Both the position numbers and the translations under genes were made by a program. From an uncultured Candidatus Saccharibacteria bacterium (lineage in GTDB: Bacteria; Patescibacteriota; Minisyncoccia; UBA6257; GWB1-50-10), in contig CAYHGT010000003.1 in NCBI GenBank assembly GCA_964356375.1, positions 554-64,553 of the forward strand: a stretch of DNA of 64,000 nucleotides. The letters run 5' to 3'. Shown here piece after piece: positions 8,233 to 42,682 of this stretch. A model generated the notes under the pieces. It was not told where the DNA came from. It made no database searches and worked only from the letters and a program-made list of their open reading frames with translations. How positions within the stretch are numbered: the first letter of the stretch is position 1; every line of letters starts with the position of its first letter.

Positions 8233-10698
8233 ATGAAAAATACAAAGAGAAAAATGGGTGTGTTTGTGTTATCATCGTTTGCGGTGCTCGCTTTTTTATT
8301 AAGCGTACTTGCGGTTGGCGCGGTGTTTATAATTGTAACTTTGCGAGAATTGCCAGCCCCCGATCAATTTGGTAATCGCGAGGTAAGCCAGTCCACAAAA
8401 CTATATGATCGTACAGGACAAACCCTCATCTACGAAATATATGGAAATGAAAAGAGAACTATAGTTCCTTTCGCCGAAATACCAGACACTCTTAAAAACG
8501 CTGTACTTGCGGCGGAAGATTCTAATTTTTATAACGAACCTGCGTTTAACTGGCGTGGTATTTTGCGCGCATTTATTGCAAATCTTAAAAGTGGCGCGGT
8601 GACGCAGGGTGGCTCAACACTTTCTCAACAACTGGTGAAGAACACACTTCTCTCTCCCGAGCGTACTGTCACTAGAAAAATAAAAGAACTTATTCTTGCA
8701 ACGAAGCTTGAATCAAAATACTCCAAGCAAGATATTTTTAGTTTTTATTTGAATCAAATTCCTTTCGGCTCCAATGCATATGGTGTTGAGGCGGCGAGCC
8801 AGATTTATTTTGGAAAACCGGTAAAAAATTTGTCTCTTCGCGAATCAACTATTCTCGCAAGCATGTTAAAAGCACCAAGTTATTATTCGCCGTGGGGTAC
8901 ACACAAAAAGGAGCTGTACGAGCGTAGTGATTACGTGCTTGATAGAATGATGAGTCTCGGCTCAATATCCAAAAAAGATGGGGAGACCGCAAAAAAACAG
9001 AAGCTTGCGTTTTCTCTTCCCTCTCTTGGCTCAATATCCGCACCCCATTTCTCGCTCGCGGTTAAAGAATATCTTGTAAACAAGTATGGGGAGCGCGCGG
9101 TTTCAAGTGGAGGGTTAAAGGTTATCACCACACTTGATGTAAAACTCCAGGTTGCGGCAGAAAAGGCGGTACAAGAAGGCGTGGCGCGCAATGCGGATTT
9201 GTACAACGGGAGAAACGCCGCGTTGATAGCAGAAGACCCTAAAACAGGGCAAATTTTAGCAATGGTTGGGTCTAAGGATTACTTTGGCGATCCTGAACCA
9301 AAGGGGTGCACCTCCTCAGTTAATTGCCTTTTTGAGGGAAATTTTAATGTGGCCACACAGGCATTGCGTCAACCAGGTTCCGCGCTTAAGCCATTTGTGT
9401 ATATGACCGCGTTCCAAAAAGGATATTCACCAAAAACGGTTTTGTTTGATGTGCAAACAGAATTTGATACACGAAACGATCCGGCAACAAGTTATAAACC
9501 GGGAAATTTTGATAATTTATTTAGAGGACCTGTTCGCATGGAACAGGCGCTCGCACAATCATTAAATGTTCCTGCGGTAGAAACACTGTATCTCTCGGGA
9601 CTTGATGATGTATTAAAAAATTTAAGCATGTTTGGCGTATCTTCGCTTAAAGAAAGGTGGCGGTATGGACTCTCGCTTACGTTAGGTGGTGGCGAAATAA
9701 AACTTGTAGATTTAGTAAAGGCCTACTCTGTGCTTTCGCAAAACGGAACATTACACGAACAACAAATGGTACTAAAGGTTGAGAATAGTAAGGGCACTAC
9801 ATTGGAAGAATATACCGATCGGAGTTCTCGTGTAATAGATCCGCAATACCCAAAACTCATCACGCAAATTCTTTCCGATTCAGACCTTCGTTCAGCAGTA
9901 TTCCGCTCAAGCCTATCCCTCACTGTGTTTGATGGATATGAGGTCGCGCTCAAAACCGGAACAACTCAGGATTATCGCGATGCATGGACGTTCGGATACA
10001 CCCCTAACTTGGTTGTTGGCGTGTGGGCAGGCAACAACGACAATACCCCGATGAAAAGTCAGGGGAGTAGTATTTTAGCGGCGGTGCCTATGTGGAGCGC
10101 GTTTATGAAAGAAGCTCTTCCACAAACAAAAATGGAACTGTTTGAAAAACCGGATTCGTATTCGCTCCCCTCAAAACCAATGTTGAATGGAGAGCACATT
10201 TATTCACCTTTAGTGAACGGGATTCGCGTGCCGCAAGTGCACTCAATTCTTTATTATGTTGATAAATCAAATCCATTGGGAGGTATGCCGGACGACCCCG
10301 CAAGAGATTCACAATTTACAAATTGGGAAACCGCAGTAAGTGATTGGGTAAAGGAAAACCCTGGCGTGTTAGGTGTATATATAAAAACGAGCCCGCGGAG
10401 CACAACTCCGTCCGCGCCAGGCGCCTCTGCGTCTGTTGTAATTAACGAACCCAAAAACGCGGAATTCGCAAACGCGCCGTTACGCATAAAAGCGAGGCTG
10501 TCCGCGTCAAACGATTTATTAGAACGCGTTGAGTTGTATTTTGATCGTCGGCTTGTAGGAGCGGAGGATATAAGTGGTTCGGTGTACTACTATCAAAATG
10601 ATTTAAATATTCCGCTTGGAGCGCAAAATCTTGTTGAAATAAAAATAAAAACCCGCGGTGGCGCAACCGCGTCCCAGTCCGTAATTGTGTATCATTAA
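8233..10698 (+). CDS. mrcA: Class A penicillin-binding protein 1A (glycosyltransferase GT51 + transpeptidase)
   Basis: N-terminal TM anchor; GT51 motifs EDSNFY, GGSTLSQQL, RKIKE; transpeptidase SxxK-like region; 821 aa. Confidence 0.88.
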   Translation: MKNTKRKMGVFVLSSFAVLAFLLSVLAVGAVFIIVTLRELPAPDQFGNREVSQSTKLYDRTGQTLIYEIYGNEKRTIVPFAEIPDTLKNAVLAAEDSNFYNEPAFNWRGILRAFIANLKSGAVTQGGSTLSQQLVKNTLLSPERTVTRKIKELILATKLESKYSKQDIFSFYLNQIPFGSNAYGVEAASQIYFGKPVKNLSLRESTILASMLKAPSYYSPWGTHKKELYERSDYVLDRMMSLGSISKKDGETAKKQKLAFSLPSLGSISAPHFSLAVKEYLVNKYGERAVSSGGLKVITTLDVKLQVAAEKAVQEGVARNADLYNGRNAALIAEDPKTGQILAMVGSKDYFGDPEPKGCTSSVNCLFEGNFNVATQALRQPGSALKPFVYMTAFQKGYSPKTVLFDVQTEFDTRNDPATSYKPGNFDNLFRGPVRMEQALAQSLNVPAVETLYLSGLDDVLKNLSMFGVSSLKERWRYGLSLTLGGGEIKLVDLVKAYSVLSQNGTLHEQQMVLKVENSKGTTLEEYTDRSSRVIDPQYPKLITQILSDSDLRSAVFRSSLSLTVFDGYEVALKTGTTQDYRDAWTFGYTPNLVVGVWAGNNDNTPMKSQGSSILAAVPMWSAFMKEALPQTKMELFEKPDSYSLPSKPMLNGEHIYSPLVNGIRVPQVHSILYYVDKSNPLGGMPDDPARDSQFTNWETAVSDWVKENPGVLGVYIKTSPRSTTPSAPGASASVVINEPKNAEFANAPLRIKARLSASNDLLERVELYFDRRLVGAEDISGSVYYYQNDLNIPLGAQNLVEIKIKTRGGATASQSVIVYH

Positions 10699-10735: not shown

Positions 10736-11842
10736 TTAGTTTTTTATAGGCATAACCACATACATAAGTCCTGTTTCTATTGGGTTTTTTAGCACTGCGG
10801 GTCGGTCGGAAGAATTCACGCCAAGTACTATATCTTCGGACGAATAAATTTTGAGTCCGTCTAATAAATACCTCCAGTTAAATACTATAGAAAACACATC
10901 GCCTTTGAATTTTATTGGAATTTTATAGTGATTTTCTCCAAGCGAGGAATCCGCAGAAGATAGCTCCAAAAACTTTTTGTTTTCCCCAATTGAAATGGTT
11001 ATGCTATTTCCTCTTCCTGAAAACGCGCTTGTGAGCTTTACTGCGTTTATAAATTCGTTACGGTTGAGTGTCGCTTCGTTTTGGGTTTGTTTTGGAATAA
11101 TGGCTTTGTATTCAGGGAATACCCCATCCACAAGACGAGAAATGAGTTGGCGCGACTGTGTTTTGAAAAGAACCTGGTTTTGTTCTATAAAAATCTCTAC
11201 ATCGCCTGTATTCCCTGTTAAAAAACGAACAAGTTCTTCGGCTGTTTTATATGGAACTATCATTGAAATATCGTTTTGCACATGGAGATTTTCTATTTTC
11301 ATAATTCTCTCTGCGAGACGAAAGCTATCGGTCGCAGCAAGGATAACTTCGTTATCAAACACACGGAAAAATACACCGCTAATTTCGGGTCGTATTTCCG
11401 AATATTGTGTAGCCACAATAACGTTTTGCAATGATTCCAAAAATCTAGAAATGGGAAATTTTACTACATTGTCTTTCTCATTAATATTTGGAATAATCGG
11501 AAAATCTTTCGCGCTTTGCGCCTGAATAGTTGCTTCGTAGTTATCTGTGATTATTTCAATTTGTTTATCTTTTACCTCAAGTGATACTCGCTCGGCATTT
11601 AGGTTTTTCGCAACTGGACCAAACACAGAAACAGGGATGGTTATTTCCCCGTCTTCCACTATTTTCCCAGGAACGACTTGAGTAATCGCGAGTTCAAGGT
11701 TTGTGCATGTAAACAAAATACGACCACCTTCGGTTTTAATAAGAATGTTTTTTAATATCGGAAGATTCGCGACAGTACTCACTGCCCGCTCAACCGCATT
11801 TAACCCTTCTATTATATTATTCTTTAGTATTATTAATTTCAT
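10736..11842 (-). CDS. dnaN: DNA polymerase III beta sliding clamp
   Basis: 368 aa, three-domain clamp pattern, N-terminal MKLIILKNNIIEGLNAVERAV; located immediately downstream of dnaA. Confidence 0.9.
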   Translation of the reverse strand: MKLIILKNNIIEGLNAVERAVSTVANLPILKNILIKTEGGRILFTCTNLELAITQVVPGKIVEDGEITIPVSVFGPVAKNLNAERVSLEVKDKQIEIITDNYEATIQAQSAKDFPIIPNINEKDNVVKFPISRFLESLQNVIVATQYSEIRPEISGVFFRVFDNEVILAATDSFRLAERIMKIENLHVQNDISMIVPYKTAEELVRFLTGNTGDVEIFIEQNQVLFKTQSRQLISRLVDGVFPEYKAIIPKQTQNEATLNRNEFINAVKLTSAFSGRGNSITISIGENKKFLELSSADSSLGENHYKIPIKFKGDVFSIVFNWRYLLDGLKIYSSEDIVLGVNSSDRPAVLKNPIETGLMYVVMPIKN

Positions 11843-11849
11843 AGATAGT

Positions 11850-12038
11850 GGTAGTAGTAGGTGTTGTGAATATGTGGATATACTTGTTTTTGTAAGCTTG
11901 TGTTTGGTTTTCTTTTTCCTATCCTGTGGAAAACAAACTAAGTGGTGTTGATGATTTCTTCTTTTTTATTTTTCTCATATTTTTATACAGCAACTATCAA
12001 CATACTTATCCATCGCCTTATCCACTTATTATCCCACA
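11850..12038. promoter_or_regulatory. oriC: DnaA-box cluster (oriC candidate) in the dnaA-dnaN intergenic spacer
   Basis: Several 7-8/9 matches to TTATCCACA (tgtggata at 11873; cttatccat, ttatccact and ttatcccaca at 12006-12037) in an AT-rich spacer. Context is the canonical dnaA-dnaN arrangement. Confidence 0.5.
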
Positions 12039-13421
12039 CTACACATTTTTGAATAAAAGCTCTTTTATAAGAAGTATTTTTTGGTTAAGCGCGGAATTTA
12101 CTGTTATTTCCTTCGCTATCTTCTCATATGCATGAATCACGGTTGTGTGGTCCCGTTTCCCCATTTTTTCTCCTATATTAGGATATGAGAGCTTCAAAAT
12201 CTCCCTCAAAAGATACATCGCGACCTGCCGCGGCTCCACAACCTCCTGTTTTCTTCCTCTGTCCGTCAAATCCGACTGCGAAACCTCATAAAACTCGGAA
12301 ACCGTTCTTACCACCTCATTTGCAGTGATGTTTTTTGGAGATACTTGCGCGGTTTCGTTAATGATGTAATCAAGCTTCTTCGTGTCAATTTTCTCGTGTT
12401 TATACTGCTCATAAAACAAAACCTTGTTTAAAACCCCCTCTACCTCTCTAATATTGCGTTGTATTTTGGTCGCGATGTATTCAAGTGTCTTTTCGTCTAT
12501 ATCAACATTAAGTGCGTGTGCCTTAGTTTTTAGAATCGCGAGGCGCATCTCATAATCAGGATATGCAACATCCGCTATCATACCACCTTCAAAACGAGAA
12601 CGGAGACGCTCTTCAAGGGTTGGAATTGCGGCTGGAGGCCTATCAGACGAGATGATGATTTGTTTGTTGTTTTCGTAAAGTGCATTAAATGTATAAAAAA
12701 ATTCCAATTCAGTTGCGGGTTTTCCTCCAATGAATTGAATGTCATCAATAATGAGCATATCAACACCCCTATATTTCTTTTTCATATCCTCCGCGCGTTT
12801 GTTGCGAAGCGCCCACACCACATCGTTTACAAATTTTTCAGACGTAACATAAAGAACACTCACCTTACCGCCATATTTTTCATTTACCGCGTTGCCGGCA
12901 GCTTGAAGCAAGTGAGTCTTCCCAAGCCCAACGCCTCCATAAATAAACAACGGATTATATTTTTTCCCAACACTATCAATAACTGCATTAATAGCGGCGC
13001 ACGCAAGTTCATTTGATGAACCAACCACAAACGTATCAAACGTGTATTTTGGATTGAGATTTGTTTTTGGATCAATCTTAAGCTCGGTAATCGGAATATT
13101 ATTATTTTCTTCCGTGAGTTCTGCTTCTTTTTGTTTGTGAGATTGTTTTGCGGGCTGAAGTGGCGTGTTGTGATTTACCACCACATAGTTCACATATTTA
13201 ATAGAGCCATCAATATTGCGGAGAGAGCCCAAAATAATCTTGTGATACCGATTTTTAATCCACTCCTTCGCAAAATTATTAGGAAGCCCCACTAACGCAA
13301 TCCCCTCCTTCTCATTTTTCTCTATAAGCTGACTGTTTTTGAACCACGTTAAGAAGTTTGGACGCGAAATCTGGAGTTCTATTTCGCCAAGCACAGTCTT
13401 CCAAAGTTCTTGATGGTCCAT
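12039..13421 (-). CDS. dnaA: Chromosomal replication initiator protein DnaA
   Basis: AAA+ Walker A GGVGLGKTHLLQA and the DnaA C-terminal DNA-binding domain; 460 aa. Confidence 0.95.
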   Translation of the reverse strand: MDHQELWKTVLGEIELQISRPNFLTWFKNSQLIEKNEKEGIALVGLPNNFAKEWIKNRYHKIILGSLRNIDGSIKYVNYVVVNHNTPLQPAKQSHKQKEAELTEENNNIPITELKIDPKTNLNPKYTFDTFVVGSSNELACAAINAVIDSVGKKYNPLFIYGGVGLGKTHLLQAAGNAVNEKYGGKVSVLYVTSEKFVNDVVWALRNKRAEDMKKKYRGVDMLIIDDIQFIGGKPATELEFFYTFNALYENNKQIIISSDRPPAAIPTLEERLRSRFEGGMIADVAYPDYEMRLAILKTKAHALNVDIDEKTLEYIATKIQRNIREVEGVLNKVLFYEQYKHEKIDTKKLDYIINETAQVSPKNITANEVVRTVSEFYEVSQSDLTDRGRKQEVVEPRQVAMYLLREILKLSYPNIGEKMGKRDHTTVIHAYEKIAKEITVNSALNQKILLIKELLFKNV

Positions 13422-13739
13422 GGTGTGTTTTTAAAAAATAAAGTAAAAAATCCAGAAAAGAAAAATAAAATTGCAAACTTCCCATCTATCATATAGGTAT
13501 TCTAAAAACTTTCAATATTGATTTGTGAACCCGTTTGTGCTTTAATTGTGCACTACTTGTTGATAACGCGTTTTTTCTACCTACGGGAGATTTCCCAAAA
13601 GGGAGAGAAGACGAAACAATGGAGTGATGGCACCCCACTCCGCCCTACGGGCTTTGAGGGGTTGTTATTCGCTTCGCGAATAACAAAAATTGTGTTTTAA
13701 AAAAACGTGTGGTACTATTCCATATAAGAAAACAAACAT

Positions 13740-13874
13740 ATGAGTCAAACATATCAACCAAAGAAAAAGAAAAGAAGGAATACGCACGGGTTTTTGAAAC
13801 GAAGCAGGTCTCCCGGAGGACGTGCCGTTCTTGCGCGCAGAAGACAAAAAGGGCGCAAAAAGCTCTCGGTTTAA
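13740..13874 (+). CDS. rpmH: 50S ribosomal protein L34
   Basis: Not in the ORF track (44 aa). Translation [44 protein letters not shown] matches the L34 consensus; it sits in the canonical position upstream of rnpA. Confidence 0.9.
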
Positions 13875-14140
13875 TGGCTTTGAGCACCAACATGCCAGAG
13901 AAACACGAAGCGCCGGTTATTATCAAAAAAAACAGAAGTGGCTTCCAAAAGAAGCCACTTCTTATTACAGTTGGCAAGGGAGTCGCAAAAAAAGCGACCG
14001 AGCGAAACCTTATTAAGAGACGCATTCGCGCGATTGTTCGCGAGTCAGGCATTTTGGAGAAAGGAGATGTGACAATTATTGCGCGTCCCGCTGTCGCCAA
14101 ACTCTCATTTGCGGAATTGAAAGCATTCATAGTACACTAA
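13874..14140 (+). CDS. rnpA: Ribonuclease P protein component
   Basis: C-terminal part of the track ORF 13709-14140 (KKNRSGFQKKPLLITVGKGVAKKATERNLIKRRIRAIV...) is RnpA-like. The ATG at 13874 overlaps the rpmH stop (taATGg). The true start could be a non-ATG codon slightly upstream. Confidence 0.75.
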   Translation: MALSTNMPEKHEAPVIIKKNRSGFQKKPLLITVGKGVAKKATERNLIKRRIRAIVRESGILEKGDVTIIARPAVAKLSFAELKAFIVH

Positions 14141-14145
14141 GCAAG

Positions 14146-14829
14146 ATGTTTGCATTCTTTAACACGTATCTTTACATGCCGACCGTGTCGGCGCTTTTGT
14201 TTATTTACAACACTATCACGTTCCAAGACCTCGGTCTCGCAATCGTATTTTTAACCATCGTAGTACGCGTGGTTCTTTTCCCTGTATTTTATAAAGGAGC
14301 GAAGGACCAGGCGCTTATGCAGCGTATTCAACCACATATTAAAAAAATCCAACTGGACCATAAGGACAACAAAGAGGCGCAGGCGCGCGCAATGCTGGAT
14401 TTGTACAAAAAATATAAACTTAATCCATTCGCGGGCATTTTTTTACTCATCCTGCAACTCCCCGTCTTTATAGTTCTCTTCCAAGTATTTTCAAAAGAAC
14501 TTTCAACCGGAATATTCGCAACCACCACACTTCTCGGCTTCATTGACCTCGGCGCCAAAGGGTATGTCTTGCCGATTATCGCGGCCGCGGCGCAATATTT
14601 TCAAACAAAGTTGATGATGGGACCGCAGGCAAAAAACGCATCGAACGAAAACGACAACCTAATGGCGAGAATGGCAAAAACAATGGCAGTTGTAGGTCCT
14701 GCGTTCACCTTCTTCATTCTTGTAAATCTTCCAGCGGCGCTCAGTGTCTATTGGACAGTGTCTGGCGTCTTTTCTATCTTCCAGCAGATATATATCAACA
14801 AAAGATTGCCAAAATTTGAGGATGAGTAG
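14146..14829 (+). CDS. yidC: Membrane protein insertase YidC (short Oxa1-like form)
   Basis: Five-TM core with conserved RVVLFPV...LNPFAG...LQLPVFI motifs; 227 aa; rpmH-rnpA-yidC synteny. Confidence 0.85.
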   Translation: MFAFFNTYLYMPTVSALLFIYNTITFQDLGLAIVFLTIVVRVVLFPVFYKGAKDQALMQRIQPHIKKIQLDHKDNKEAQARAMLDLYKKYKLNPFAGIFLLILQLPVFIVLFQVFSKELSTGIFATTTLLGFIDLGAKGYVLPIIAAAAQYFQTKLMMGPQAKNASNENDNLMARMAKTMAVVGPAFTFFILVNLPAALSVYWTVSGVFSIFQQIYINKRLPKFEDE

Positions 14830-14860
14830 TATACTGAAATCCTAAAATCAACCAAAACAA

Positions 14861-15313
14861 ATGGAAACAAATACTTCTAACGAGATGAACCCCATTATTG
14901 AAAAAACCAAGGAAATAATAGCGCTTTTGGGCTACCCGGAGGCAGAGGTTGCGGTAGACGAGGAGCGTCGGAAGATAATCATCCTTATTGATGACCGATT
15001 TGTGGTTGAGAATGTTGAGATTATCCTTCCAGCAGTTGACCACATAATAAACCTCGTTCTTAAAAAGGGTGGGCTTATTCCACACATTGTTGACCTTAAT
15101 TACTATAGAAAGGAGCGGGAGCGCCTTATTGTAGAGCTTGTGAAGGCCGCGGCACGCAAAGCAACAATTACCAAAGAAGAGGTTGAGCTTCCTGCGATGA
15201 ATGGCTATGAAAGGCGCTTGGTGCACATGGAAATCACCGCGCACCCCGATTTAAAAACAGAAAGCACAGGAATGGGAAAAGAGCGACGCGTAGTAATAAA
15301 ATTTGTTTCATAA
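14861..15313 (+). CDS. jag: Jag/KhpB-type R3H (KH-like) RNA-binding protein
   Basis: C-terminal R3H-like GYERRLVHMEI motif; conserved position after yidC. Confidence 0.7.
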   Translation: METNTSNEMNPIIEKTKEIIALLGYPEAEVAVDEERRKIIILIDDRFVVENVEIILPAVDHIINLVLKKGGLIPHIVDLNYYRKERERLIVELVKAAARKATITKEEVELPAMNGYERRLVHMEITAHPDLKTESTGMGKERRVVIKFVS

Positions 15314-15320
15314 GTAATAC

Positions 15321-15348
15321 AAAAATCCCCGTATATGCGGGGATTTTT
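15321..15348 (+). terminator. Bidirectional terminator (aaaaatccccgtatatgcggggattttt)
   Basis: Perfect hairpin with flanking A/T runs between convergent jag and the pilin-peptidase gene. Confidence 0.6.
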
Positions 15349-15368
15349 AGTACAGAATTAAATTAATT

Positions 15369-16868
15369 TTAGTATGCCAGCTCCACATGAATGTGAAGAT
15401 TTTGTGAGCCCATTGCCACTGCGTCGCAAGTTGGCTTAAGCTGAGTGTTGCCAGACGAATCCTTGTATTCGCATCTCGCAATATTGCCCGAGCCCGAACC
15501 ATTTAACAAGTCAATTACGTGATTATACGCACTTACACCACTATAAGTCGTTCCACTTATAGTATATGTGGTGGGCACAATATCAAAAGCTGCGCCTATA
15601 TAATGTTTTGAATTTGGGGCGTGATCGCCGCCAGTAAGAGATGTGACCGTGGCGATAACACCCGCATCACTCAATTGATCTATTTTGTAAAGAAGTGCGA
15701 GCGATGGAAAAACAGGAGGGTTTCTATCTCTTCTACACGCGATGCCGTTCGTACTACACCCACTACTGCACACATAAGGCGTTTCTCCGCGTTTCAACGA
15801 TTGTAGGACACCAGCCGCCGATGACTCGGACGGACTACAAGAGGCACCAGTACCAAATGTTATACCAAATGTTTGGAGCTGCCCCGCCAGCTCCTTTATA
15901 TTATCAGGAACAGTCCCAGGGGCGCCGTCTGGATTAATAATCCCACTACCGCCTAAATAGCCGGGTTCTTGTTTTGATCCGGGGCTTATGAGCGTACAGG
16001 GCTCAACATCCTTCGCAAGACCAACGTATGCAAACTTCCCAGCATCAGTTCCTGGTCCTCGGTATGCATATACAAGACAGCGCGCGGTTTCCACGCTTTG
16101 CCCAATCTTTTTGTAGGGATACACCCACACTATAGAGCCCATTGTGATATCCGGAAGAAACCCTAATGGTGTGTACGCAGCAACCCAACTGAGGTCATAA
16201 TATTCATCAACATCGCGGAATGTCATACCTCCACTACTAACATTAACACGAAGTCTACGATATCTGCATGTATTGTTAGCGGCTGGCGTAACACCAGTTA
16301 TTCTCGTAAAAGACGTACCCGGTATTGTTTTTGCTGGCCTACATTCCTCTGGGGGTTCTTGTAAAGCGGCTGGCGTAGAAGTATTTGTGGGAACAGTGCT
16401 CGTAGAGAGCATTTCTCCAAGCGAGACGATGCGCGGGTTTACTGTGCTAAGTATAAGGTAGGAACCAAGGAGAAGCACAATGCCAATAATTGCAGAGGTT
16501 ATCTTTTCTCTTCCCTCGCTTTTCTGGGTAATACTTTCTGTAAATAGAGATATTTGAATGGAGCCCCAGACAATCATGCCGACCGCGACAATACCTGAAA
16601 TGCCAACCGCAAATTGATAGAGGCGGATAAGATAGTCCTGAATTGTAGAGTTAGCCGTAAGAGGCGCGGCACACGTATCAAGTCCCAAAACTCCCGGTGA
16701 GGGAATACAAGGTGGCGCAAATTCAAGCCTTAATGGAACGGGGTCGGCCGCGAGTGTCGCCAACGGAAACAAAACCACAAAAGAGAGGAGTGCACAAAAA
16801 ACAATTTTTTTAATAGTCATAGATAGGAGGTTCATTTGATTGATGTTGTATGACATATATATAACCAT
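15369..16868 (-). CDS. Fusion protein: signal peptide + VirB2/TrbC-like pilin domain (two hydrophobic helices) + Cys-rich linker + C-terminal LAS/M15-type zinc D,D- or L,D-peptidase (peptidoglycan hydrolase) domain
   Basis: N-terminal region IQDYLIRLYQFAVGISGIVAVGMIVWGSIQISLF...EGREKITSAIIGIVLLLGSYLI parallels the three VirB2-like paralogs at 41.7-43.1 kb. C-terminus carries SKHYIGAAFD (SxHxxGxAxD, H-x6-D) and HIHVE (HxH), the metal ligands of VanY/VanX/M15 LAS peptidases. The probable true start is MTIKK at 16820. Confidence 0.5.
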   Translation of the reverse strand: MVIYMSYNINQMNLLSMTIKKIVFCALLSFVVLFPLATLAADPVPLRLEFAPPCIPSPGVLGLDTCAAPLTANSTIQDYLIRLYQFAVGISGIVAVGMIVWGSIQISLFTESITQKSEGREKITSAIIGIVLLLGSYLILSTVNPRIVSLGEMLSTSTVPTNTSTPAALQEPPEECRPAKTIPGTSFTRITGVTPAANNTCRYRRLRVNVSSGGMTFRDVDEYYDLSWVAAYTPLGFLPDITMGSIVWVYPYKKIGQSVETARCLVYAYRGPGTDAGKFAYVGLAKDVEPCTLISPGSKQEPGYLGGSGIINPDGAPGTVPDNIKELAGQLQTFGITFGTGASCSPSESSAAGVLQSLKRGETPYVCSSGCSTNGIACRRDRNPPVFPSLALLYKIDQLSDAGVIATVTSLTGGDHAPNSKHYIGAAFDIVPTTYTISGTTYSGVSAYNHVIDLLNGSGSGNIARCEYKDSSGNTQLKPTCDAVAMGSQNLHIHVELAY

Positions 16869-17985
16869 CGTATCTATTCACAAAATAAATAGAGTTGTTT
16901 ACCGACACCACATTATCCGCATCAAGCGAGGGAATTGGACCAGATTCTCCTACTACAACAGCAGAATCAGTTCCTGATTGTAAAACTATTTTGTAAAGGT
17001 CATCGCTTGTGTATAGTTTATTCATAAAATAATCATCAGGTATAGCATTTGTTCTTACAAACACACCCCTATCTTTTGGAACAAAGCAGTACACCACATC
17101 AGCCCCACCATCGCATTTTGTAGGAAGCGTAATTAGGACAAGTGGAACAAGCTCGCTGAATGTTCTGTCTAATATTGAAAACTTGTTTGGTGAAGAAAAG
17201 CGGAACAAGACATCTTTATTACTACCCCACCGCACAAATGAACCAAACGCGGGACTTATGACGAGCGTCACTATCCCGGTTTTTGTATCAATTTGCCACA
17301 CGCGCGAACTAGCGTATGAAGACGGTTTTTCGGAAATCAGTATTTCGGTTGCGGATTTTGCGTAAAACGAAATACCCCTCATAGAAAAATTGGAAACAAT
17401 AGTTTTAAACACATAAGGTTGTTTTGATATGTCTATAAACGAAAGCGAAGTTACTCCATTTTTTTGTACACTTCCAACTAATTGTGTTTCGGTACTCGCC
17501 CACGCCACACTTATAATTTCTTTAGGAAGTGGGCGCCACACCTTATCAATGGTGTCAAAAAGTGCCCACTGTGGAGATGAGGGATTGCCGTACGAGATAA
17601 GCGCTCTTTCACCCGAGGGAGATGGTTCAACACGTATTAATCCGGCTATGGTTTGTTTTGACGCGGGCACATCCCCGCTATCCTTTGCTTCTATTACTTC
17701 GCCATCGGCCGAGATGTAGAATACCGCTTTGGTTGTTTTGGAAACCCAAAACCCGAGCACGGGCTTATTTGAAAGCTTCCTAAACGTATAAGAATCTTCG
17801 GTTGAAGTGCTTGCAATTGCTCCTATCCTCGCATCTTGTGGTAATGGAACATTGATTGTCGCGTTTGGTTGTTCCTCTTGCGCAACAGGAGCAGGAACGA
17901 AAAATTTTGACCAAAGAAAATAAACAAAAAATACAGCAAGAAGTACAGAAACGGATATGATAATAATTTTATAAATCGGTTTCAT
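16810..17985 (-). CDS. Hypothetical membrane-anchored extracytoplasmic protein (T4SS-like cluster)
   Basis: Single N-terminal TM (IIIISVSVLLAVFFVYFLW) followed by a roughly 360-aa beta-rich domain; overlaps neighbouring genes (operon-like packing). Confidence 0.45.
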   Translation of the reverse strand: MKPIYKIIIISVSVLLAVFFVYFLWSKFFVPAPVAQEEQPNATINVPLPQDARIGAIASTSTEDSYTFRKLSNKPVLGFWVSKTTKAVFYISADGEVIEAKDSGDVPASKQTIAGLIRVEPSPSGERALISYGNPSSPQWALFDTIDKVWRPLPKEIISVAWASTETQLVGSVQKNGVTSLSFIDISKQPYVFKTIVSNFSMRGISFYAKSATEILISEKPSSYASSRVWQIDTKTGIVTLVISPAFGSFVRWGSNKDVLFRFSSPNKFSILDRTFSELVPLVLITLPTKCDGGADVVYCFVPKDRGVFVRTNAIPDDYFMNKLYTSDDLYKIVLQSGTDSAVVVGESGPIPSLDADNVVSVNNSIYFVNRYDGYIYVIQHQSNEPPIYDY

Positions 17986-17989
17986 ATAG

Positions 17990-18694
17990 TTATCGTATGA
18001 ATATATTGGTATCGGTCTTTATAATATTGGTCATATCATCCCTGCTTTGCACATAAGAAGAAACCGCCACGTTTTTCTGCGCCTCTGAAAAAGGGCTACT
18101 AATTTTGAGAGAAATAGAATTTTCGGCTCCCATGTTTTTCTTTATACTTCCCACCTGCCAATAGAAAATAAAGCGATTAAGTGATGCAACATTAAAGAAA
18201 TAAGGAACCGCACGCATGGTAACGTCGGAATTTGCGTTAATTATTGAATGAGGATATGGAATTTCTATCGCGACTACGGGCTGTGAGATTGGTATTAAAA
18301 TAGATTGTTCTGCGATTATGTTGCCAAGCGTGATTTCCGCGCGGACAAAAATACCATCTACGTCATTGGTATCAGGTTTCAGCGATGTTTGCTTTAATCC
18401 GATTCCAGAATCTATTTGATTTCCCGAGTTATACCACGCGATATTCGCTTGCGAAAGATCTGCAGATTTGCCATTTATGAGCATTTCAGTAGAAACGGTT
18501 ATCGGTGTGCCAATCGTTGGTAGTGCCCTTCCCCTATAATTAGAAGGATAAAAATTTTCAGCACTCCACGTGAGAATTATCTGTGGCGGAATTTGCGGAG
18601 CTGGCGCTGTTTTTGCCGCATGTGCGAAAAAAAAGGGCACAAAAAAACCTAGTATAGAAAACGATAGTATGGTTGTTTTGAAAAAACTTCTCAT
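17990..18694 (-). CDS. Hypothetical secreted protein (T4SS-like cluster)
   Basis: Signal peptide MRSFFKTTILSFSILGFFVPFFFAHAA; no recognisable motifs. Confidence 0.45.
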   Translation of the reverse strand: MRSFFKTTILSFSILGFFVPFFFAHAAKTAPAPQIPPQIILTWSAENFYPSNYRGRALPTIGTPITVSTEMLINGKSADLSQANIAWYNSGNQIDSGIGLKQTSLKPDTNDVDGIFVRAEITLGNIIAEQSILIPISQPVVAIEIPYPHSIINANSDVTMRAVPYFFNVASLNRFIFYWQVGSIKKNMGAENSISLKISSPFSEAQKNVAVSSYVQSRDDMTNIIKTDTNIFIR

Positions 18695-18699
18695 ATTTC

Positions 18700-19215
18700 T
18701 TATTTTTTGATAGGAACCTTGTTTGCTACTTTTTCTACCGCCTGCACCACCGCAAACTTTTCTGGATGATTTTCCATATATACCGTCACAAGGAATGTGA
18801 ATATCAGCGTTGGAATAAATGGGATTAATTGTACAAGAAAAGGAACAAGAAAACGTTTTGCTAAGCTTGATGTCACCTTACACCCCTTAATTGTAAACCA
18901 AAATGTGAAAATGAACCACGAGGTGAATTGTACAATAGTACCCAACAAACTGAAGGAGAAGAAATCTCCAATCGCGGCTAGTATATCAAGGATGATACAA
19001 ATCAAAGAGCCTAAAATTATCTCAATGGTTGAGAATTTTGGCCCCGTAGAAGATCCCAAATGCTTCCCCGCTTTTTCAAAAGCGCGCCCCTTTTCGTTAT
19101 TTTGTACTCGTATTGAAGCGGAGTGTCCTACGGTACTCACACCCTCCCCGACCGTCATCGTTCTTCTGCTTACAACACGTCTTGCTCCAGGCATAATTGG
19201 CGCATTTGTTGCCAT
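18700..19215 (-). CDS. Hypothetical polytopic membrane protein (T4SS-like cluster)
   Basis: Three to four predicted TM helices; directly downstream of the VirB4 gene. Confidence 0.45.
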   Translation of the reverse strand: MATNAPIMPGARRVVSRRTMTVGEGVSTVGHSASIRVQNNEKGRAFEKAGKHLGSSTGPKFSTIEIILGSLICIILDILAAIGDFFSFSLLGTIVQFTSWFIFTFWFTIKGCKVTSSLAKRFLVPFLVQLIPFIPTLIFTFLVTVYMENHPEKFAVVQAVEKVANKVPIKK

Positions 19216-19218
19216 ACG

Positions 19219-20970
19219 TTATTTTTTTAGTCCCTTAATTTCCAAGATCTGCTCGGGGTTTGTGGTGATAATCTGGTCCTCGGTGTAGGAAGCAACAATC
19301 TTAATCGCAACGTGCTTTGCGCCCGCAAAGAAAAGCGCCTCACCAATGTTTGCCTCAAGAAGGAATCCTTTCTCGCCCTCGGTTAAGCTGAACGCGCCCG
19401 CAACAACATCAATAGCCGCTGGCGACTGCTTCATAAGAATTTGCGTTGCCGAGTTAGTGATAATTGGTTTGCCATATTCTGATTTCAAGAAATCTTCCAC
19501 GTCTTGCGTGATAGTTGTAATGCCGAGGTAATATTTGCGGGCGCGCTTCACAAGCCCAAAAAGGAATGACGCGCTGTCCTTAAACTTCATCATAATCCAC
19601 GCCTCATCAACGACGAGCACGCGTTGGCGAAGCTCTGCGCGAATAAGATTCCACACGAAATTCAATACGATATACATCGCAATCGGGCGAAGTTCTTCGT
19701 CTAAATCACGAATTGAAAAAACAATGAGGCGGTTTTTAAAATCAACATTCGTGGGTGCGTTCGTAAAGCCCGCGTATGTGCCGTGTACAAATTTTTCAAG
19801 ACGTTGCGCGAGCTGAAGCCCTCCCTTTGTGTTTTGTAAAATAACCTGAAGATCCTCAAGAAGTGGAGGCTCCATTTCTTTTGTCTGGCCGAAATTGTCT
19901 GCGGTAATATCGCGCGACGCGTATGTATCAGAAAGCGCCTTATCAAGGAGAGCGTCTTCTTCGGGCGATATTACACCAAGCATCAGTTTTATAAGACCCG
20001 AGAGGTTCAAGATATGGGACTTAAATACATCCGCAGGTTCATCCCCTTCTGGAATAATAGGAATATCAAACGGATTGATATGGCTTTGCGATGTGAGCGA
20101 AATTTTGAAATAACTTCCGCCAATAGCATTGGAAAGATTTTGGTACTCATTTTCTGGATCTATTACAATCACATTTGTGCCAGTCATAAGCGAGCGCAAA
20201 ATGAGAAGTTTTGCGGTGTATGATTTACCAGCGCCAGCTTTTGCAAATACCACCTGGTTTGCATTTTCAAGCGAGAATCGGTCAAAAATAACTAAGCTAT
20301 TGTTGTGCATGTTTACGCCATACATCACACCCTTGTCGGATGTAAGGTCCGGAGAGACGAACGGAAAAAGCGAAGAGGCTGGCCCAGAATTAAGCGGTGT
20401 GTGTGTTTCAAGCTTATCTGTGCAGAGCGGAAGGACCGAATCAAATCCCTCCATCTGCTTGAAAAGCGCGGGCTTTATATAGACCAACTTACTCTGAAGC
20501 ATTGATTCTAATTGGGTTTCAAGTTTTGCGAGCGCATCCAAGCTTTGTCCATAAAGTGTGATATATACCCCAACTTTGAAAAGCTTTTCTCTCGCTTGCA
20601 TTAATGAATCGCGCAAGCTCTCAATGTCTTGGTAGGCGGTCTCAAGCAGTGGATCGCGCACCATACCCTTTGTTGCTTTTTCGTCCATTTCCGACTGGAC
20701 CTGCGCCACCTTTTTTTGGAGGTTGCGTAAAGCCCCCGCAGTTTCCATGGGATGTATGAAAATAGAGATATCCATCATCTCGGAAAGATTGATGATGGGC
20801 GAGAACCAGCCGGAAGAAACGAAGCGCGGGTATGTGAAAATGAAAACAGTTTTTACGAAATAATCACCGAGTTTCAGATAGTTCGGACTCACTTCAAGTC
20901 CCGAGGGCGCAACAATGTTTGGAAGGTCTCCAGGCGACGGCTTATATGTTTGTGGAATTTGTATCTTCAT
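19219..20970 (-). CDS. virB4: VirB4/TrbE/CagE-family type IV secretion ATPase, C-terminal two-thirds (ATPase domain)
   Basis: Walker A VVFAKAGAGKSYTAKL, the VirB4 signature DPENEY (DPKGEY-like), Walker B VLVVDEAW, and the upstream YPRFVSSGWFSPIINL VirB4 core. Its ATG is supplied by the terminal motif of a mini-element (cttctaacgggATG). Confidence 0.85.
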   Translation of the reverse strand: MKIQIPQTYKPSPGDLPNIVAPSGLEVSPNYLKLGDYFVKTVFIFTYPRFVSSGWFSPIINLSEMMDISIFIHPMETAGALRNLQKKVAQVQSEMDEKATKGMVRDPLLETAYQDIESLRDSLMQAREKLFKVGVYITLYGQSLDALAKLETQLESMLQSKLVYIKPALFKQMEGFDSVLPLCTDKLETHTPLNSGPASSLFPFVSPDLTSDKGVMYGVNMHNNSLVIFDRFSLENANQVVFAKAGAGKSYTAKLLILRSLMTGTNVIVIDPENEYQNLSNAIGGSYFKISLTSQSHINPFDIPIIPEGDEPADVFKSHILNLSGLIKLMLGVISPEEDALLDKALSDTYASRDITADNFGQTKEMEPPLLEDLQVILQNTKGGLQLAQRLEKFVHGTYAGFTNAPTNVDFKNRLIVFSIRDLDEELRPIAMYIVLNFVWNLIRAELRQRVLVVDEAWIMMKFKDSASFLFGLVKRARKYYLGITTITQDVEDFLKSEYGKPIITNSATQILMKQSPAAIDVVAGAFSLTEGEKGFLLEANIGEALFFAGAKHVAIKIVASYTEDQIITTNPEQILEIKGLKK

Positions 20971-21103
20971 CCCGTTAGAAGCGATTAACGCTTATTGTTT
21001 GTTTGTGCGACCAATCAACTGCTGTTTCCAATTTTGAAATTTTTGCCACGCGCACGACCACCGCAGGTGGTCGGCTTCTAACGGGATTCATCCCGTTAAT
21101 TAG
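20968..21103. mobile_element. Miniature inverted-repeat element (CATCCCGTTAGAAG ... CTTCTAACGGGAT, plus an adjacent truncated second terminus) inserted between the two VirB4 halves; contains a 38-aa read-through ORF (minus strand, 20975-21091)
   Basis: 14-bp terminal inverted repeats. Outward reading of each end gives TAA-CGGG-ATG. The interior is an uninterrupted ATG-to-TAA frame of 117 nt (MNPVRSRPPAVVVRVAKISKLETAVDWSHKQTISVNRF). Confidence 0.45.
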
Positions 21104-21139
21104 TGTGTCCACATTTTTTGTTATAGTTTGGTTCATTCT

Positions 21140-21778
21140 TTATAATTTTTTGGTAAGCTCCATACCCTTTTTCTCGGTGAGTTGTGGATTGTACATATTG
21201 TAGAATAGTTCCACGATTTCATCGGTATCTAATTGGGTCACATGGAGACCAACCTGCTCTAAGCCGTCAGTTACCTCGGAAACGCGATGTTCAAGTTGTT
21301 CAAGCGCGGCTTGTTCCGATTGGTTTGCCTCAACTTTTGTTTGTTTTTTAAACATATCAAGAAGATTGAATGACGATTTTTGGATAGACGATCCCTCGTA
21401 GGGCACAATTACAAAAAATGTCTTATTAATGATAGCGTTTTGGTCAACAAACGAGCGGATAAACTCCGCGTATTCGGCAATCTGAATCTTCAAAAGCGCA
21501 TTTTCTTCCTGTTCTTCACGCTGTTTCATTTTTGCAAGATATGCATCCACATTCACTTTTCGCGAGTGAATGAAAAGCTGGATTGAAAAATCAATCGTAT
21601 TCAAAAAATTCTGGAAACTATTAAGTATGGTCACCTGCTCGGCCTCCGATTTAAGATCAAAATTAACGCCACCCACAATGAGTATTTTACGAATACCGCC
21701 ACTCTTCAAATATGCGACACCGTCGCGCACCTCTTTTATATCAACGAATTGTTGTGTGGGAATGCTTACTTCTGCCAT
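21140..21778 (-). CDS. virB4: VirB4-family ATPase, N-terminal domain (separate ORF)
   Basis: FVDIKEVRDGVAYLKSGGIRKILIVGGVNFDLKSEAEQ resembles the N-terminal segment of Gram-positive-type VirB4 (TcpF/Orf16/PrgJ-like). 212 + 583 aa is about full VirB4 length; it lies directly upstream of the ATPase ORF on the same strand. Confidence 0.5.
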   Translation of the reverse strand: MAEVSIPTQQFVDIKEVRDGVAYLKSGGIRKILIVGGVNFDLKSEAEQVTILNSFQNFLNTIDFSIQLFIHSRKVNVDAYLAKMKQREEQEENALLKIQIAEYAEFIRSFVDQNAIINKTFFVIVPYEGSSIQKSSFNLLDMFKKQTKVEANQSEQAALEQLEHRVSEVTDGLEQVGLHVTQLDTDEIVELFYNMYNPQLTEKKGMELTKKL

Positions 21779-21857
21779 ATGTCATTAGTATACCGCATTT
21801 TTCTACCTACGGTAAATCTTCCATGTCCGCCGATAGGCAGGCGCAGGGGAGACAACC

Positions 21858-22343
21858 TTAATAATCAACTCTCTTCGCTACCTTATGCTCCCCCGTTAAA
21901 TATGTCACAGATTGATATCGAGCGCCGCTCGCACTCTTGTGTTTGAGGATTTCTCCCGTGGTGATGCTCTGCGCAAGTGATTTAATTTTGTCCTGGATAC
22001 TTATATTGTTGCGCAACGCCTGGATTTTTTCCAAATCAGAGGTATCAAGCGTGGTCTGCTCCATCGCGCGTTGCCATGTATATCTGCGAGGCTTCCATAT
22101 AAAGGAGACCGCAGAAACCAAAATTGTTGGAAAGTCCTGACCGTTTATTTTCACAAACGCAAGCGCAATCGCGATACTGGCCAAAATAACAGAGATAAAT
22201 AACCACAAGAAAAACGTAAGCACATAAAAACCGGCAATAGAAATACCTCCCGCAACCGCGAGATAAAAAAATTGCATCAGCGTAAACGGGCCGACTATTT
22301 TCGCCTTCTCCTCAATAAATTGTGGGACTTGGAATTCTGCCAT
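21858..22343 (-). CDS. VirB3/PrgI-like small two-TM membrane protein
   Basis: 161 aa with two TM helices (FFYLAVAGGISIAGFYVLTFFLWLFISVILASIAIALAFV), immediately upstream of virB4 in the conserved virB3-virB4 order. Confidence 0.35.
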   Translation of the reverse strand: MAEFQVPQFIEEKAKIVGPFTLMQFFYLAVAGGISIAGFYVLTFFLWLFISVILASIAIALAFVKINGQDFPTILVSAVSFIWKPRRYTWQRAMEQTTLDTSDLEKIQALRNNISIQDKIKSLAQSITTGEILKHKSASGARYQSVTYLTGEHKVAKRVDY

Positions 22344-22357
22344 GTGTAAAAAGAAAA

Positions 22358-23590
22358 CTACTTTAAATGAACCACATTTCCTTCTAGTGCCGGACCGTTT
22401 TCTTTTGGCGCGTATTCAGCCCCTTTTGTCTGGGTATTAGGAAGTTTAGCGGGTACAGCGCTTATTGTGATGGGAACGGGCTGACTCGTTGTGGGTTTTA
22501 GGTTGCCACCCTCCGGAAGATGTTCAGCGGGGACATAGATTTTAGGTTGTTTGTCTGCAACCGAAATCTTCTTTTCTTCCCTTTTTTTGTTGAATATGGA
22601 TTTTAGTGACCATCTCCTTCCCTCTTCTTTTACAGATTCATTTAGCGCTGACGTATCAACGACCGTAGGAGTGGAGGCCGTCTCTGGTGCTTTTGATTGC
22701 AATGCATCAATTGAGCCCGCGATACTCGGTGTGACAACAGGACTTATTTTTTCCGTCTCGTTGTCGTATGTTGTAGGTCGTTTGTCGTTGGTTGAGATAT
22801 TTTGCAACGCTTCCAAATGAATGAGACCCTCGGGAGTTTGCGAAAGCGGAGAAGACGATGAGCGGATTTCGCTATAATGCACAACTTTTTCCTCGTCTTT
22901 CTTCTTTTCAAATGGCCAACTGAACGCATGCGGGGTTTCAATTTTTACTTTCACAGCCGGCTTCGCCTCCGTTGATTCGGGAGAAGATGCAAACATATTG
23001 AACGGAATTGGCGACCTCCTCTTTTCTGTGCGCTCCGCAGGCTTCTCAAAGAATGAACCGCTCTTTTGGAGCACCATCGGACCACCTTCTTCATGGATAG
23101 GCAATGAGACAGGTTCTGTGTCCTCGGTTCCTATCGCGCTTACTTGTATTTTTTCGCCAATTAGCCCCACTGATTCTACCTTTGTTTCCGTCGCCACCTC
23201 TTCATTGTTCGGCTGTGTGGTTGTTTTTTCACTTTCTTCAGTTGCTTCCGTTTCGTCACCGTACGGATTATACGCCTCTTCAAGCTCCTCTTTTACCGAA
23301 TCAAAAATACGCGCATTAATTTCATTCGCAAGCGCGCGTGAATGTTCGTGGTTTAGAAATAGTCGTTCGCCTATCTCATGCGTAAGTTCGCTTTTTGCCA
23401 AGAAGCCCATAAGTACAAACGCAATGAGTGCTCCAAGTTCCCACTGTTTTTCCTCGTCAAGATAGTGTTCCCTACCGATGTTTTCCAACATCTTTTTTCC
23501 TTGTTGTGAATCAACCGCATCACGAAGTTCTTCGTGGAGCGCGGTATAACGATTAGTGAATGCTGTTTTTGTGGGGAATGTGAATGCCAT
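22358..23590 (-). CDS. Hypothetical acidic, low-complexity (E/T/P/K-rich) protein
   Basis: 410-aa ORF with a structured N-terminal part of about 90 aa, then a long disordered region; no motif recognised. Confidence 0.45.
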   Translation of the reverse strand: MAFTFPTKTAFTNRYTALHEELRDAVDSQQGKKMLENIGREHYLDEEKQWELGALIAFVLMGFLAKSELTHEIGERLFLNHEHSRALANEINARIFDSVKEELEEAYNPYGDETEATEESEKTTTQPNNEEVATETKVESVGLIGEKIQVSAIGTEDTEPVSLPIHEEGGPMVLQKSGSFFEKPAERTEKRRSPIPFNMFASSPESTEAKPAVKVKIETPHAFSWPFEKKKDEEKVVHYSEIRSSSSPLSQTPEGLIHLEALQNISTNDKRPTTYDNETEKISPVVTPSIAGSIDALQSKAPETASTPTVVDTSALNESVKEEGRRWSLKSIFNKKREEKKISVADKQPKIYVPAEHLPEGGNLKPTTSQPVPITISAVPAKLPNTQTKGAEYAPKENGPALEGNVVHLK

Positions 23591-23594
23591 TTTA

Positions 23595-25838: not shown

Positions 25839-25846
25839 TATGCGAT

Positions 25847-27958: not shown

Positions 27959-27960
27959 GT

Positions 27961-42085: not shown

Positions 42086-42127
42086 AAGATAATTATTGAA
42101 TAAATAAAAGTATCAAACATCCGACCT

Positions 42128-42676: not shown

Positions 42677-42682
42677 GTTTTT

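Follow-up and report, generated by a model that had tools for sequence, protein, structure and literature searches.

A VirB2-like pilin hairpin fused to a putative LAS/Hedgehog-type peptidase domain at the end of a type IV secretion operon in Patescibacteria

Background

Wall hydrolases such as VirB1, PrgK, TraG and TcpG are thought to open the cell wall locally so that a type IV secretion system (T4SS) can be assembled. In surveys with hidden Markov models (HMMs), VirB1 or PrgK is missing from most Patescibacteria T4SS loci, and most Patescibacteria genomes with VirB2 have no detectable VirB1 (PMC12102498). In Southlakia, homologs of peptidases and lysozyme whose genes lie just downstream of virB4 are essential and are a possible substitute for VirB1 (PMC12102498). 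For Candidatus Southlakia epibionticum ML1, residues 951-1105 of SEML1_0007, the product of a gene that lies downstream of virB4 and is essential for epibiotic growth, have been assigned to the ECOD Hedgehog/DD-peptidase group on a Sonic hedgehog (Shh) template (Wang et al. 2023, Cell, PMC10633639 Table S2). Here we analyze a gene that invites comparison with these systems, found in a 64,000-nucleotide stretch of DNA (hereafter the window) from an uncultured Candidatus Saccharibacteria bacterium (contig CAYHGT010000003.1, positions 554 to 64,553). The protein it encodes, referred to below as the fusion, joins a VirB2-like pilin hairpin to a C-terminal domain with a predicted LAS or Hedgehog/DD-peptidase fold, and the gene is the fixed terminal gene, in its lineage, of an oriC-adjacent VirB4/PrgI/VirB6-like T4SS operon.

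PrgK (pCF10), TraG (pIP501), TcpG and VirB1 are encoded by T4SS-operon genes downstream of VirB4, and are membrane-anchored with extracytoplasmic muralytic domains (PMC12102498). The fusion resembles them in that its gene lies inside a T4SS operon and its product combines a signal peptide and a hairpin with cysteines that are external in the predicted topology. It differs from them in both of its modules: the described hydrolases carry SLT/lysozyme, CHAP or LytM (M23) domains behind an ordinary N-terminal transmembrane (TM) segment, whereas the fusion carries a LAS/Hedgehog-like domain behind a pilin hairpin, and a Pfam search of the fusion protein returned no SLT, CHAP or M23 domain. When compared by annotation, SEML1_0007 is like the fusion in that it belongs to a T4SS cluster near the replication origin, lies downstream of virB4 and ends in a Hedgehog/DD-peptidase domain of ~155 residues. 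The same annotation-level comparison sets it apart by its length of 1113 residues, its position directly after virB4 and before a lysozyme/CHAP protein, and its lack of an annotated PF18895 domain.

No published description of a pilin-peptidase fusion was found in the literature; the AFESM preprint names PF18895, Patescibacteria and DD-peptidase together, and the fusion is not described there. The ingredients are nonetheless already known, namely PF18895 pilins, T4SS hydrolases, the Southlakia Hedgehog/DD-peptidase domain and the Pfam pair of pilin and SLT_3. The view of the initial annotation that such a fusion had not been described before therefore holds in that no paper describing it was found, but it has to be qualified by the precedence of the Southlakia Hedgehog/DD-peptidase protein and the pilin plus SLT_3 pair.

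Architecture of the fusion protein

The fusion gene occupies positions 15369-16868 on the minus strand, exactly as initially annotated, and its open reading frame (ORF) encodes 499 residues from the first ATG or 483 from the methionine at position 17 (M17). Throughout, coordinates are window positions and residues of the fusion are counted from the first ATG. A database protein of 495 residues, whose source is a Patescibacteria group bacterium and whose name at NCBI is 'pilin', is 100% identical to the fusion; both the start of this gene call and that of the 499-residue longest ORF lie upstream of M17. The true start is probably M17 (ATG 16820-16818, MTIKK...). In the alignment of homologs, P0005 begins at MTIKK, matching M17 of the fusion, and translation from M17 yields a classical Sec signal peptide, MTIKKIVFCALLSFVVLFPLATLA (16749-16820, minus strand), with a predicted cleavage site before ADP, bearing out the signal peptide of the initial annotation. 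The fusion gene, read from the ATG of M17, and the upstream gene o391, which ends in the stop codon TAA (16812-16810), share 11 nt (string ATGACTATTAA), which suggests that the two genes are translationally coupled. The signal peptide is followed by a VirB2-type hairpin, a Cys-containing middle domain of ~145 residues and a C-terminal domain of 180 residues.

The VirB2-like T4SS pilin hairpin spans residues 74-145 (16434-16649, minus strand) and is supported by Pfam, structure prediction and alignments. PF18895 (T4SS_pilin), a family related to PF04956 (TrbC/VirB2), matches residues 74-135 with E 3.5e-8 and 33.8 bits, against a gathering cut-off of 26.6, and NCBIfam adds a weak match to a pilin-like conjugal transfer family. 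In the full-length AlphaFold2 (AF2) model a short charged loop links two long helices, 75-108 and 113-143, and the latter two of the three hydrophobic segments of the protein (13-46, 80-106 and 121-145) coincide with these helices. The hairpin is thus ordered as a hydrophobic helix, the loop FTESITQKSEGREK, a second hydrophobic helix and a conserved N-P motif at its end, and 14 of its positions are invariant in an alignment of 17 homologs. The same layout is found in three tandem VirB2-like pilin paralogs of 118, 134 and 153 residues (41729-43144, minus strand), all of which match PF18895 and one of which also matches TrbC. These small pilins are 21-26% identical to the fusion hairpin, and their AGG..K..EAK loop aligns with the loop of the fusion. 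The two-helix architecture that had been proposed to be shared with these paralogs is borne out by the PF18895 match, the AF2 helices and the paralog alignment, and the Pfam score above cut-off rules out a generic signal anchor devoid of VirB2 similarity. The three paralogs, which are candidate major pilins, sit 25 kb from the fusion gene, unlinked to it, downstream of a solute-binding-protein gene.

Canonical VirB2 pilins have ~100-150 residues, and the fusion is too large to be one of them: because it extends for ~350 residues of globular sequence beyond the hairpin, we regard it as a pilin-domain protein and not as a canonical major pilin. In VirB2/TraA-type pilins the charged loop is cytoplasmic and both termini are outside. 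By analogy with these pilins, everything past residue 145 of the fusion would be extracytoplasmic.

The region between hairpin and C-terminal domain had initially been taken for a Cys-rich linker of about 250 residues. It is instead made up of a conserved domain of ~145 residues (residues 174-319; 15912-16349, minus strand) and the four-cysteine N-terminal half (320-400) that belongs to the peptidase domain itself. The middle domain, delimited by alignments, has four invariant cysteines (C176, C201, C264 and C291) and a W-x-Y-P-Y / C-x-x-Y-A motif. Pfam does not recognize this domain, and in the full-length AF2 model its pLDDT (predicted local distance difference test) is low. A search against PDB sequences gave six sub-significant matches (E 0.18-0.43), all of them to pertussis-like toxin B subunits, that is, glycan-binding OB folds of the PltB/ArtB type, aligned over the YY...IW.YPYF motif. 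A carbohydrate-binding role for the middle domain is, on these matches, a lead only.

The C-terminal domain has a predicted LAS fold and a conserved active site

The C-terminal domain (residues 320-499; 15372-15911, minus strand) contains six conserved cysteines. It was modeled alone because the full-length model (pLDDT 65), dominated by long helices, yielded nothing significant in Foldseek. The isolated domain was predicted by AF2 with a pLDDT of 93.4 and a predicted template modeling score (pTM) of 0.89, and the model adopts a LAS fold, in which a central antiparallel sheet packs against helices. With this model as the query, the top 17 Foldseek matches were all Hedgehog N-domains, with probabilities up to 0.96, and the next-best matches were proven murein peptidases. 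While phmmer with the C-terminal 349 residues found no match among PDB sequences, a profile of the last 180 residues searched against all PDB sequences retrieved solely Hedgehog N-terminal domains (23 matches, E 0.016-0.12). In this match GxHxxxSxHYxGxAxD aligns to Shh GHHSEESLHYEGRAVD, and H422 and D429 fall on Shh zinc ligands. A comparison by hhalign with the N-terminal domain of Shh (ShhN) gave E 1.7e-4 over 33 columns around the H-x6-D motif; the central segment of the ShhN query agrees with the PDB profile alignment.

ShhN is accordingly the best match of the domain in both sequence and structure: the spacing G-x-H-x4-S-x-H-Y-x-G-x-A-x-D is identical, the strands and helices follow the same order, and both end on a final H-I-H strand. 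The fusion differs from Hedgehog proteins in its cellular context, in its pilin hairpin and in the absence of a Hint/autoprocessing domain, for which there is no match and no room, since no more than 5 residues follow H-x-H. The LAS peptidases compared were T5 L-alanoyl-D-glutamate peptidase, Ply500, LysB4, the S. albus DD-carboxypeptidase (1lbu), MepA, VanX/VanY/VanXY and VldE. Relative to these, the fusion domain has an extra N-terminal four-cysteine subdomain and a disulfide-bridged insertion of 20-25 residues before H-x-H; it has H-x-H where VanX has E-x-x-H, and a pilin fusion occurs in none of the listed enzymes. Overall the domain is, by sequence and by modeled structure, closest to the Hedgehog N-terminal or Hedgehog/DD-peptidase branch.

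In LAS enzymes two zinc ligands come from H-x(3-6)-D, the H-x-H motif holds the third, its second His, plus the catalytic His, and S-x-H-x-x-G-x-A-x-D is the signature of M15 peptidases. These elements are present in the fusion, in SKHYIGAAFD (residues 420-429) and HIHVE (492-496), the former containing the M15-type signature S420-K-H-Y-I-G-A-A-F-D429. The first motif, H416-APNS-K-H422-Y-I-G425-AAF-D429 (15582-15623, minus strand), supplies the putative zinc ligands H422 and D429 and an upstream active-site residue, H416, as judged by translation, conservation and the Shh alignment. A strand with C466-E467-Y468 (15465-15473, minus strand) places, by eye and from the order of elements, an acidic residue where Shh has its catalytic Glu. 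H492-I-H494 (15387-15395, minus strand) lies on the last beta-strand (170-177 of the domain model). E467 and the H-x-H motif were matched to Shh E177/H181/H183 by the order of secondary-structure elements and not by a computed alignment. H422, D429 and H494 together would form a putative zinc-binding site.

The conservation of these residues was assessed with a profile searched exhaustively against 1.84 billion representatives, and counted in the best 145 relatives. The family of the C-terminal domain comprises 753 clusters (50% identity) at E <= 1e-3 and 200 at <= 1e-10. H422, G425 and D429 are each present in 145/145 of these diverse relatives, H416 in 144/145, Y423 in 143/145 and S420 in 135/145, while the alanine of S-x-H-x-x-G-x-A-x-D is found in 109/145. 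H492 and H494 are kept in 144/145 and 138/145, position 467 is E or D in 140/145 and C466 is present in 135/145. Each of the six cysteines of the domain is retained in 135-144 of the 145, which fits an extracytoplasmic location. Such a pattern is the one expected of a catalytically competent LAS enzyme outside the cytoplasm. The spacing of the H-x6-D and H-x-H motifs, on which the initial annotation had relied, is beyond chance, in that the motifs are near-invariant in the 145 relatives and the domain model adopts the LAS fold.

No Pfam or NCBIfam model covers the domain. HH_signal (PF01085) has no match in the fusion and reaches 9/120 sampled relatives below threshold (best E 3.9e-4); among the same 120 the best sub-threshold M15 values are E 0.0052 (M15_4) and 0.0066 (M15_3), and weak matches to HH_signal and to Peptidase_M15_3/_4 recur among family members. 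Since neither an M15 nor an HH_signal model reaches threshold, we place the domain in the LAS superfamily (MEROPS clan MD) but outside family M15, the Hedgehog-like branch being the nearest. The original designation as a LAS/M15-type peptidase therefore stands for LAS, given the fold model and the conserved site, and falls for M15. The HMM searches divide the protein in a similar way: the pilin part is recognized by PF18895 above its cut-off, but the Peptidase_M15 and VanY models stay below theirs.

The fusion gene terminates an origin-proximal T4SS operon

The operon has the co-directional order o703 - o747 - o410 - PrgI/VirB3-like - o212 - VirB4 - o171 - o234 - o391 - fusion, and the genes described here lie on the minus strand. 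Its upstream part consists of o410, o747 and o703 (22358-27958), placed by synteny. Of these, o747 is the VirB6/TrbL_3 equivalent; it has at least 7 hydrophobic segments and 43% identity over 356 residues to a PF19590 TrbL_3 protein of locus L024. The PrgI/VirB3-like gene (PrgI E 3.3e-8) and o212 follow at 21140-22343, the latter a homolog of PF26593 TraC-like genes, with 63-79% identity to the genes so annotated in L001 and L003. The VirB4-type T4SS ATPase (19219-20970) is recognized by PF19044 P-loop_TraG (E 1.2e-25) as well as by AAA_10 and DUF87. Next come o171 and o234 (17990-19215), small membrane or exported proteins with hydrophobic segments and no Pfam match, whose order is kept in at least 8 genomes, and o391 (16810-17985), an exported or anchored protein of 391 residues that has no Pfam match and is a conserved neighbor of the fusion. 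A terminator-like hairpin (15320-15349, minus strand), found as a pattern match in a consensus scan and consisting of a 12-bp stem and a T-rich tail, lies 20 nt past the fusion stop codon, inside the 55-nt gap before a convergent R3H gene, and appears to mark the end of the T4SS operon.

Downstream of the fusion the genes run convergently as R3H-YidC-RnpA and then DnaA-DnaN. Within window positions 10736-28719 the T4SS block thus adjoins the origin genes (DnaN, DnaA, RnpA, YidC and R3H), with a PBP1-type gene next to them. Both the location close to the origin and the set of genes, which is of the monoderm type, are as described for Patescibacteria T4SSs in the literature (PMC12102498); origin-proximal placement was noted by Quinonero-Coronel et al. 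2025. The PBP1-type gene, at 8233-10698, indicates that the organism makes peptidoglycan. The window ORFs scanned included no relaxase and no VirD4-type coupling protein, and a Pfam scan found no other recognizable wall hydrolase within the T4SS operon. On the opposite strand, upstream of the T4SS block and ~1.5 kb away from it, a LysM plus Peptidase_M23 protein is encoded at 30246-31217; this wall hydrolase could also serve the T4SS.

We compared loci starting from the alignment of close homologs, a comparison that reaches the close subfamily of the fusion. At least 8 Jorgensenbacteria/Paceibacterota/Parcubacteria genomes have exactly the gene order of the window, although the fusion protein has diverged in them to 31-45% identity. 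Divergent members of 313, 558 and 629 residues, the last with two peptidase domains, are encoded 2-4 genes downstream of VirB4. The most faithful neighbor of the fusion is o391, which adjoins it in the window and in loci L001-L010, L023-L025, L028 and L030; in L028 and L030 the two are adjacent without a VirB4 gene within 8 kb. The order of the two genes is swapped in L023 and L025, and one o391 homolog shows a faint Tricorn_2nd (beta-propeller) hint. In the sister genomes L011-L016, a gene between o234 and o391 matches just the pilin part (residues 20-150) of the fusion.

A different arrangement is found in L029 (8001-11242), where a fusion homolog of 316 residues comes first in a five-gene PF18895 array, directly after a solute-binding-protein gene. 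The counterpart of this array in the window consists of the solute-binding-protein gene at 43278-44597 and the three pilins at 41729-43144, with no fusion gene inside.

The fusion is widespread and its C-terminal module is exchangeable

A first search returned 17 full-length homologs from Parcubacteria/Paceibacterota/Gracilibacteria-type genomes, in whose alignment the proposed ligands are conserved and 16 of which match PF18895. Sampling the wider family of the peptidase domain gave the same picture, since 99/120 representatives (83%) carry PF18895 and 11/120 carry TrbC, and an HMM built from the family's own hairpin matches 119/145, most of the others being fragments or proteins with three hydrophobic segments. 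The fusion is therefore a widespread architecture in Patescibacteria. The typical family member has ~310 residues and comprises a signal peptide, the hairpin, a short linker and the peptidase, to which the subfamily of the window adds the middle domain. Eight members of ~580-640 residues (P0024, P0025, P0027, P0029, P0041, P0044, P0072 and P0132) have two or three tandem peptidase domains after a single hairpin.

The hairpin and the middle domain of the window subfamily recur in two relatives, P0015 and P0016 (69% identical to P0013 across 65% of the length), whose C-terminus is different: the peptidase gives way to a region with E-S...GLFQIN...AY motifs. Relatives of this C-terminal region are proteins of 270-430 residues with an N-terminal PF18895 domain and a C-terminal PF18896 SLT_3 domain, one of them also with PF01464 SLT. 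A profile of the P0015/P0016 C-terminus found no match in the PDB, so that its assignment as lysozyme-like rests on the SLT_3/SLT matches of the relatives and on the motifs. Proteins with PF18895 and PF18896 have the same hairpin as the fusion and, like it, would join a muralytic module to a pilin anchor; they differ from it in that their module is a lysozyme or lytic-transglycosylase-like glycosidase for which a Pfam model exists, while the putative zinc peptidase of the fusion has none. The exchange of a putative peptidase for a lysozyme-like module on one scaffold supports the view that the job of the module is to cut peptidoglycan, and we take it as strong circumstantial evidence for a muralytic role.

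The hairpin also occurs elsewhere. Locus L027 encodes, at 11289-15095 and beside P0118 (9001-11280), a protein of 1268 residues that combines PF18895 with Peptidase_S8 (subtilisin), and P0019 (309 residues) has PF18895 followed by a different C-terminal region, possibly another swapped module. Taken together, the LAS, SLT_3 and S8 fusions suggest that Patescibacteria reuse the VirB2-like hairpin as a scaffold to carry extracellular hydrolases.

Functional domains joined to pilins are also known from an unrelated class. In modular type IV pilins, such as PilB and PilC of Streptococcus sanguinis, a globular domain is grafted onto the pilin C-terminus. The window itself contains an example at 54990-56312, where domain matches identify a type IV pilin (N_methyl) with a Laminin_G_3/concanavalin-like lectin domain, 440 residues in all. 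These proteins resemble the fusion in having a pilin module and a C-terminal functional domain, and differ from it in pilin class and in that what is grafted serves adhesion and not hydrolysis. The window also encodes, at 97-1335, a pilus ATPase of the T2SSE family.

Proposed role of the fusion and alternative explanations

We consider it probable, if with modest confidence, that the fusion is a T4SS-dedicated, pilin-anchored and zinc-dependent murein peptidase that makes a local opening in the wall and is thus a functional analogue of VirB1 and PrgK. Operon position, topology, fold, conserved active site and the module swap all fit this proposal, and so do the published lack of a detectable VirB1 in most Patescibacteria with VirB2 and the essential Southlakia genes just downstream of virB4. 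After cleavage of the signal peptide, the hairpin would insert with its charged loop toward the cytoplasm, as in VirB2/TraA, and this topology would place both the middle domain and the peptidase, the latter rich in disulfides, outside the membrane. There the peptidase would bind Zn2+ through H422, D429 and H494 and cut murein beside the secretion machine at a peptide bond in the stem or the cross-link, opening the wall for passage of the channel or of a VirB2-like pilus. By way of its pilin-type anchor, the enzyme would be brought to the same assembly platform as the small pilins. The fusion may in this way be the 'missing' wall-opening enzyme of these T4SSs.

Several observations weigh against a dedicated T4SS peptidase. 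Pfam M15 models have no match in the full-length fusion, and for the isolated domain the best curated peptidase model, Peptidase_M15_4, gives E 0.25 and 12.4 bits against a cut-off of 25. Hedgehog, the best structural match, acts mainly as a ligand. The association with VirB4 is not universal in the family, as two long and isolated members (P0068 and P0118) have no VirB4 gene within 9 kb and two others (P0053 and P0212), encoded beside an o391 homolog, have none within 8 kb. Finally, the hairpin is fused to a subtilisin too and could therefore be a general anchor.

A second explanation keeps the peptidase and moves its site of action: the fusion would be a minor or tip pilin that co-polymerizes with the small VirB2-like pilins, and the displayed peptidase would cut the host wall at the contact site, opening a way for the epibiont to reach material of the host. 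This is possible, if on the unlikely side. Both termini of VirB2/TraA face the outside of the filament, and a C-terminal module would therefore be displayed; moreover, a hairpin with 14 invariant residues shows more conservation than a mere anchor needs. The presence of 2-3 tandem peptidase domains, or of immunoglobulin-like (Ig-like), PKD or TIG spacers, in some members would fit a need for reach, and the 316-residue homolog at the head of the five-gene pilin array of L029 mirrors the array of solute-binding protein and three pilins in the window. The Southlakia T4SS and pilin array are essential for epibiotic growth, and the type IV pilin with a lectin-like domain shows that modular pilins recur in the genome of the window. 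On the other hand, an appendage of 350 residues on each subunit is sterically incompatible with a tight VirB2 filament, so that the fusion could be a minor subunit at best; pilus production by Patescibacteria T4SSs is so far without evidence; and the end of a VirB4 operon is the usual place of the hydrolases (PrgK, TraG) with which monoderm T4SSs open their own wall. A fuller version, in which the fusion is the minor or tip subunit of a pilus-borne drill, the middle domain possibly binds glycans and PF18895 is a general scaffold for the display of hydrolases, strikes us as rather unlikely.

It is also conceivable, and in our judgement improbable, that the fusion is a housekeeping murein peptidase of growth or division, such as a carboxypeptidase or endopeptidase, its hairpin being just a two-helix anchor and its T4SS neighborhood incidental or lineage-specific. 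The long family members away from VirB4 would be accounted for, as would the hairpins on Peptidase_S8 and SLT_3, which is what one would see of a reusable anchor, and the LAS enzymes MepA, VanY and LdcB, structural matches of the domain, are housekeeping wall enzymes. However, a housekeeping role sits poorly with an operon position that is strict in at least 8 genomes despite protein identities of 31-45%, with VirB4 linkage in three more distant members and with a start codon that overlaps the upstream gene of the T4SS operon. Nor does it explain why the anchor is a T4SS pilin family domain and no random TM pair, or why the counterpart in Southlakia, encoded downstream of virB4, has been annotated together with the T4SS cluster.

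That the Hedgehog-like domain is a non-catalytic adhesin or ligand, binding a host surface molecule by way of a structural zinc site much as Hedgehog does its receptors, could appeal to the facts that its closest sequence and structure matches are Hedgehog signaling domains, not enzymes, and that all enzyme family models stay below threshold, but it is very improbable given that the full catalytic set (the three ligands together with H416, E/D467 and H492) is 95-100% conserved in very divergent sequences, that the next-best structural matches are proven murein peptidases, and that some relatives have a lysozyme-like catalytic module in place of the domain, a swap that speaks for enzymatic activity of an equivalent kind. 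A T4SS-translocated effector similar to the Xanthomonas X-Tfe toxins was rejected, as the fusion has a Sec signal and a membrane hairpin and is no cytoplasmic precursor with a C-terminal secretion signal.

Implications for Patescibacteria T4SSs

In the one species of Patescibacteria for which this has been tested, epibiotic growth requires the T4SS, and surveys of these bacteria report many VirB2-like 'pilins' and, for the most part, no VirB1-type hydrolase. Our analysis suggests that part of what is annotated and counted as 'pilin' is a pilin-anchored muralytic enzyme. It also delineates a large unannotated domain family, of about 750 clusters at 50% identity, which should be useful for annotation; the nearest solved structures of this family are Hedgehog signaling domains, which gives it a bearing on the bacterial origins of the Hedgehog/DD-peptidase fold. 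For the T4SSs themselves, the fusion is a concrete candidate for the wall-opening step, whether in the wall of the cell that makes it or in that of its host. A pilus-borne drill, if true, would explain both the 'missing VirB1' and the essential role of the T4SS and its pilins in the epibiotic lifestyle.

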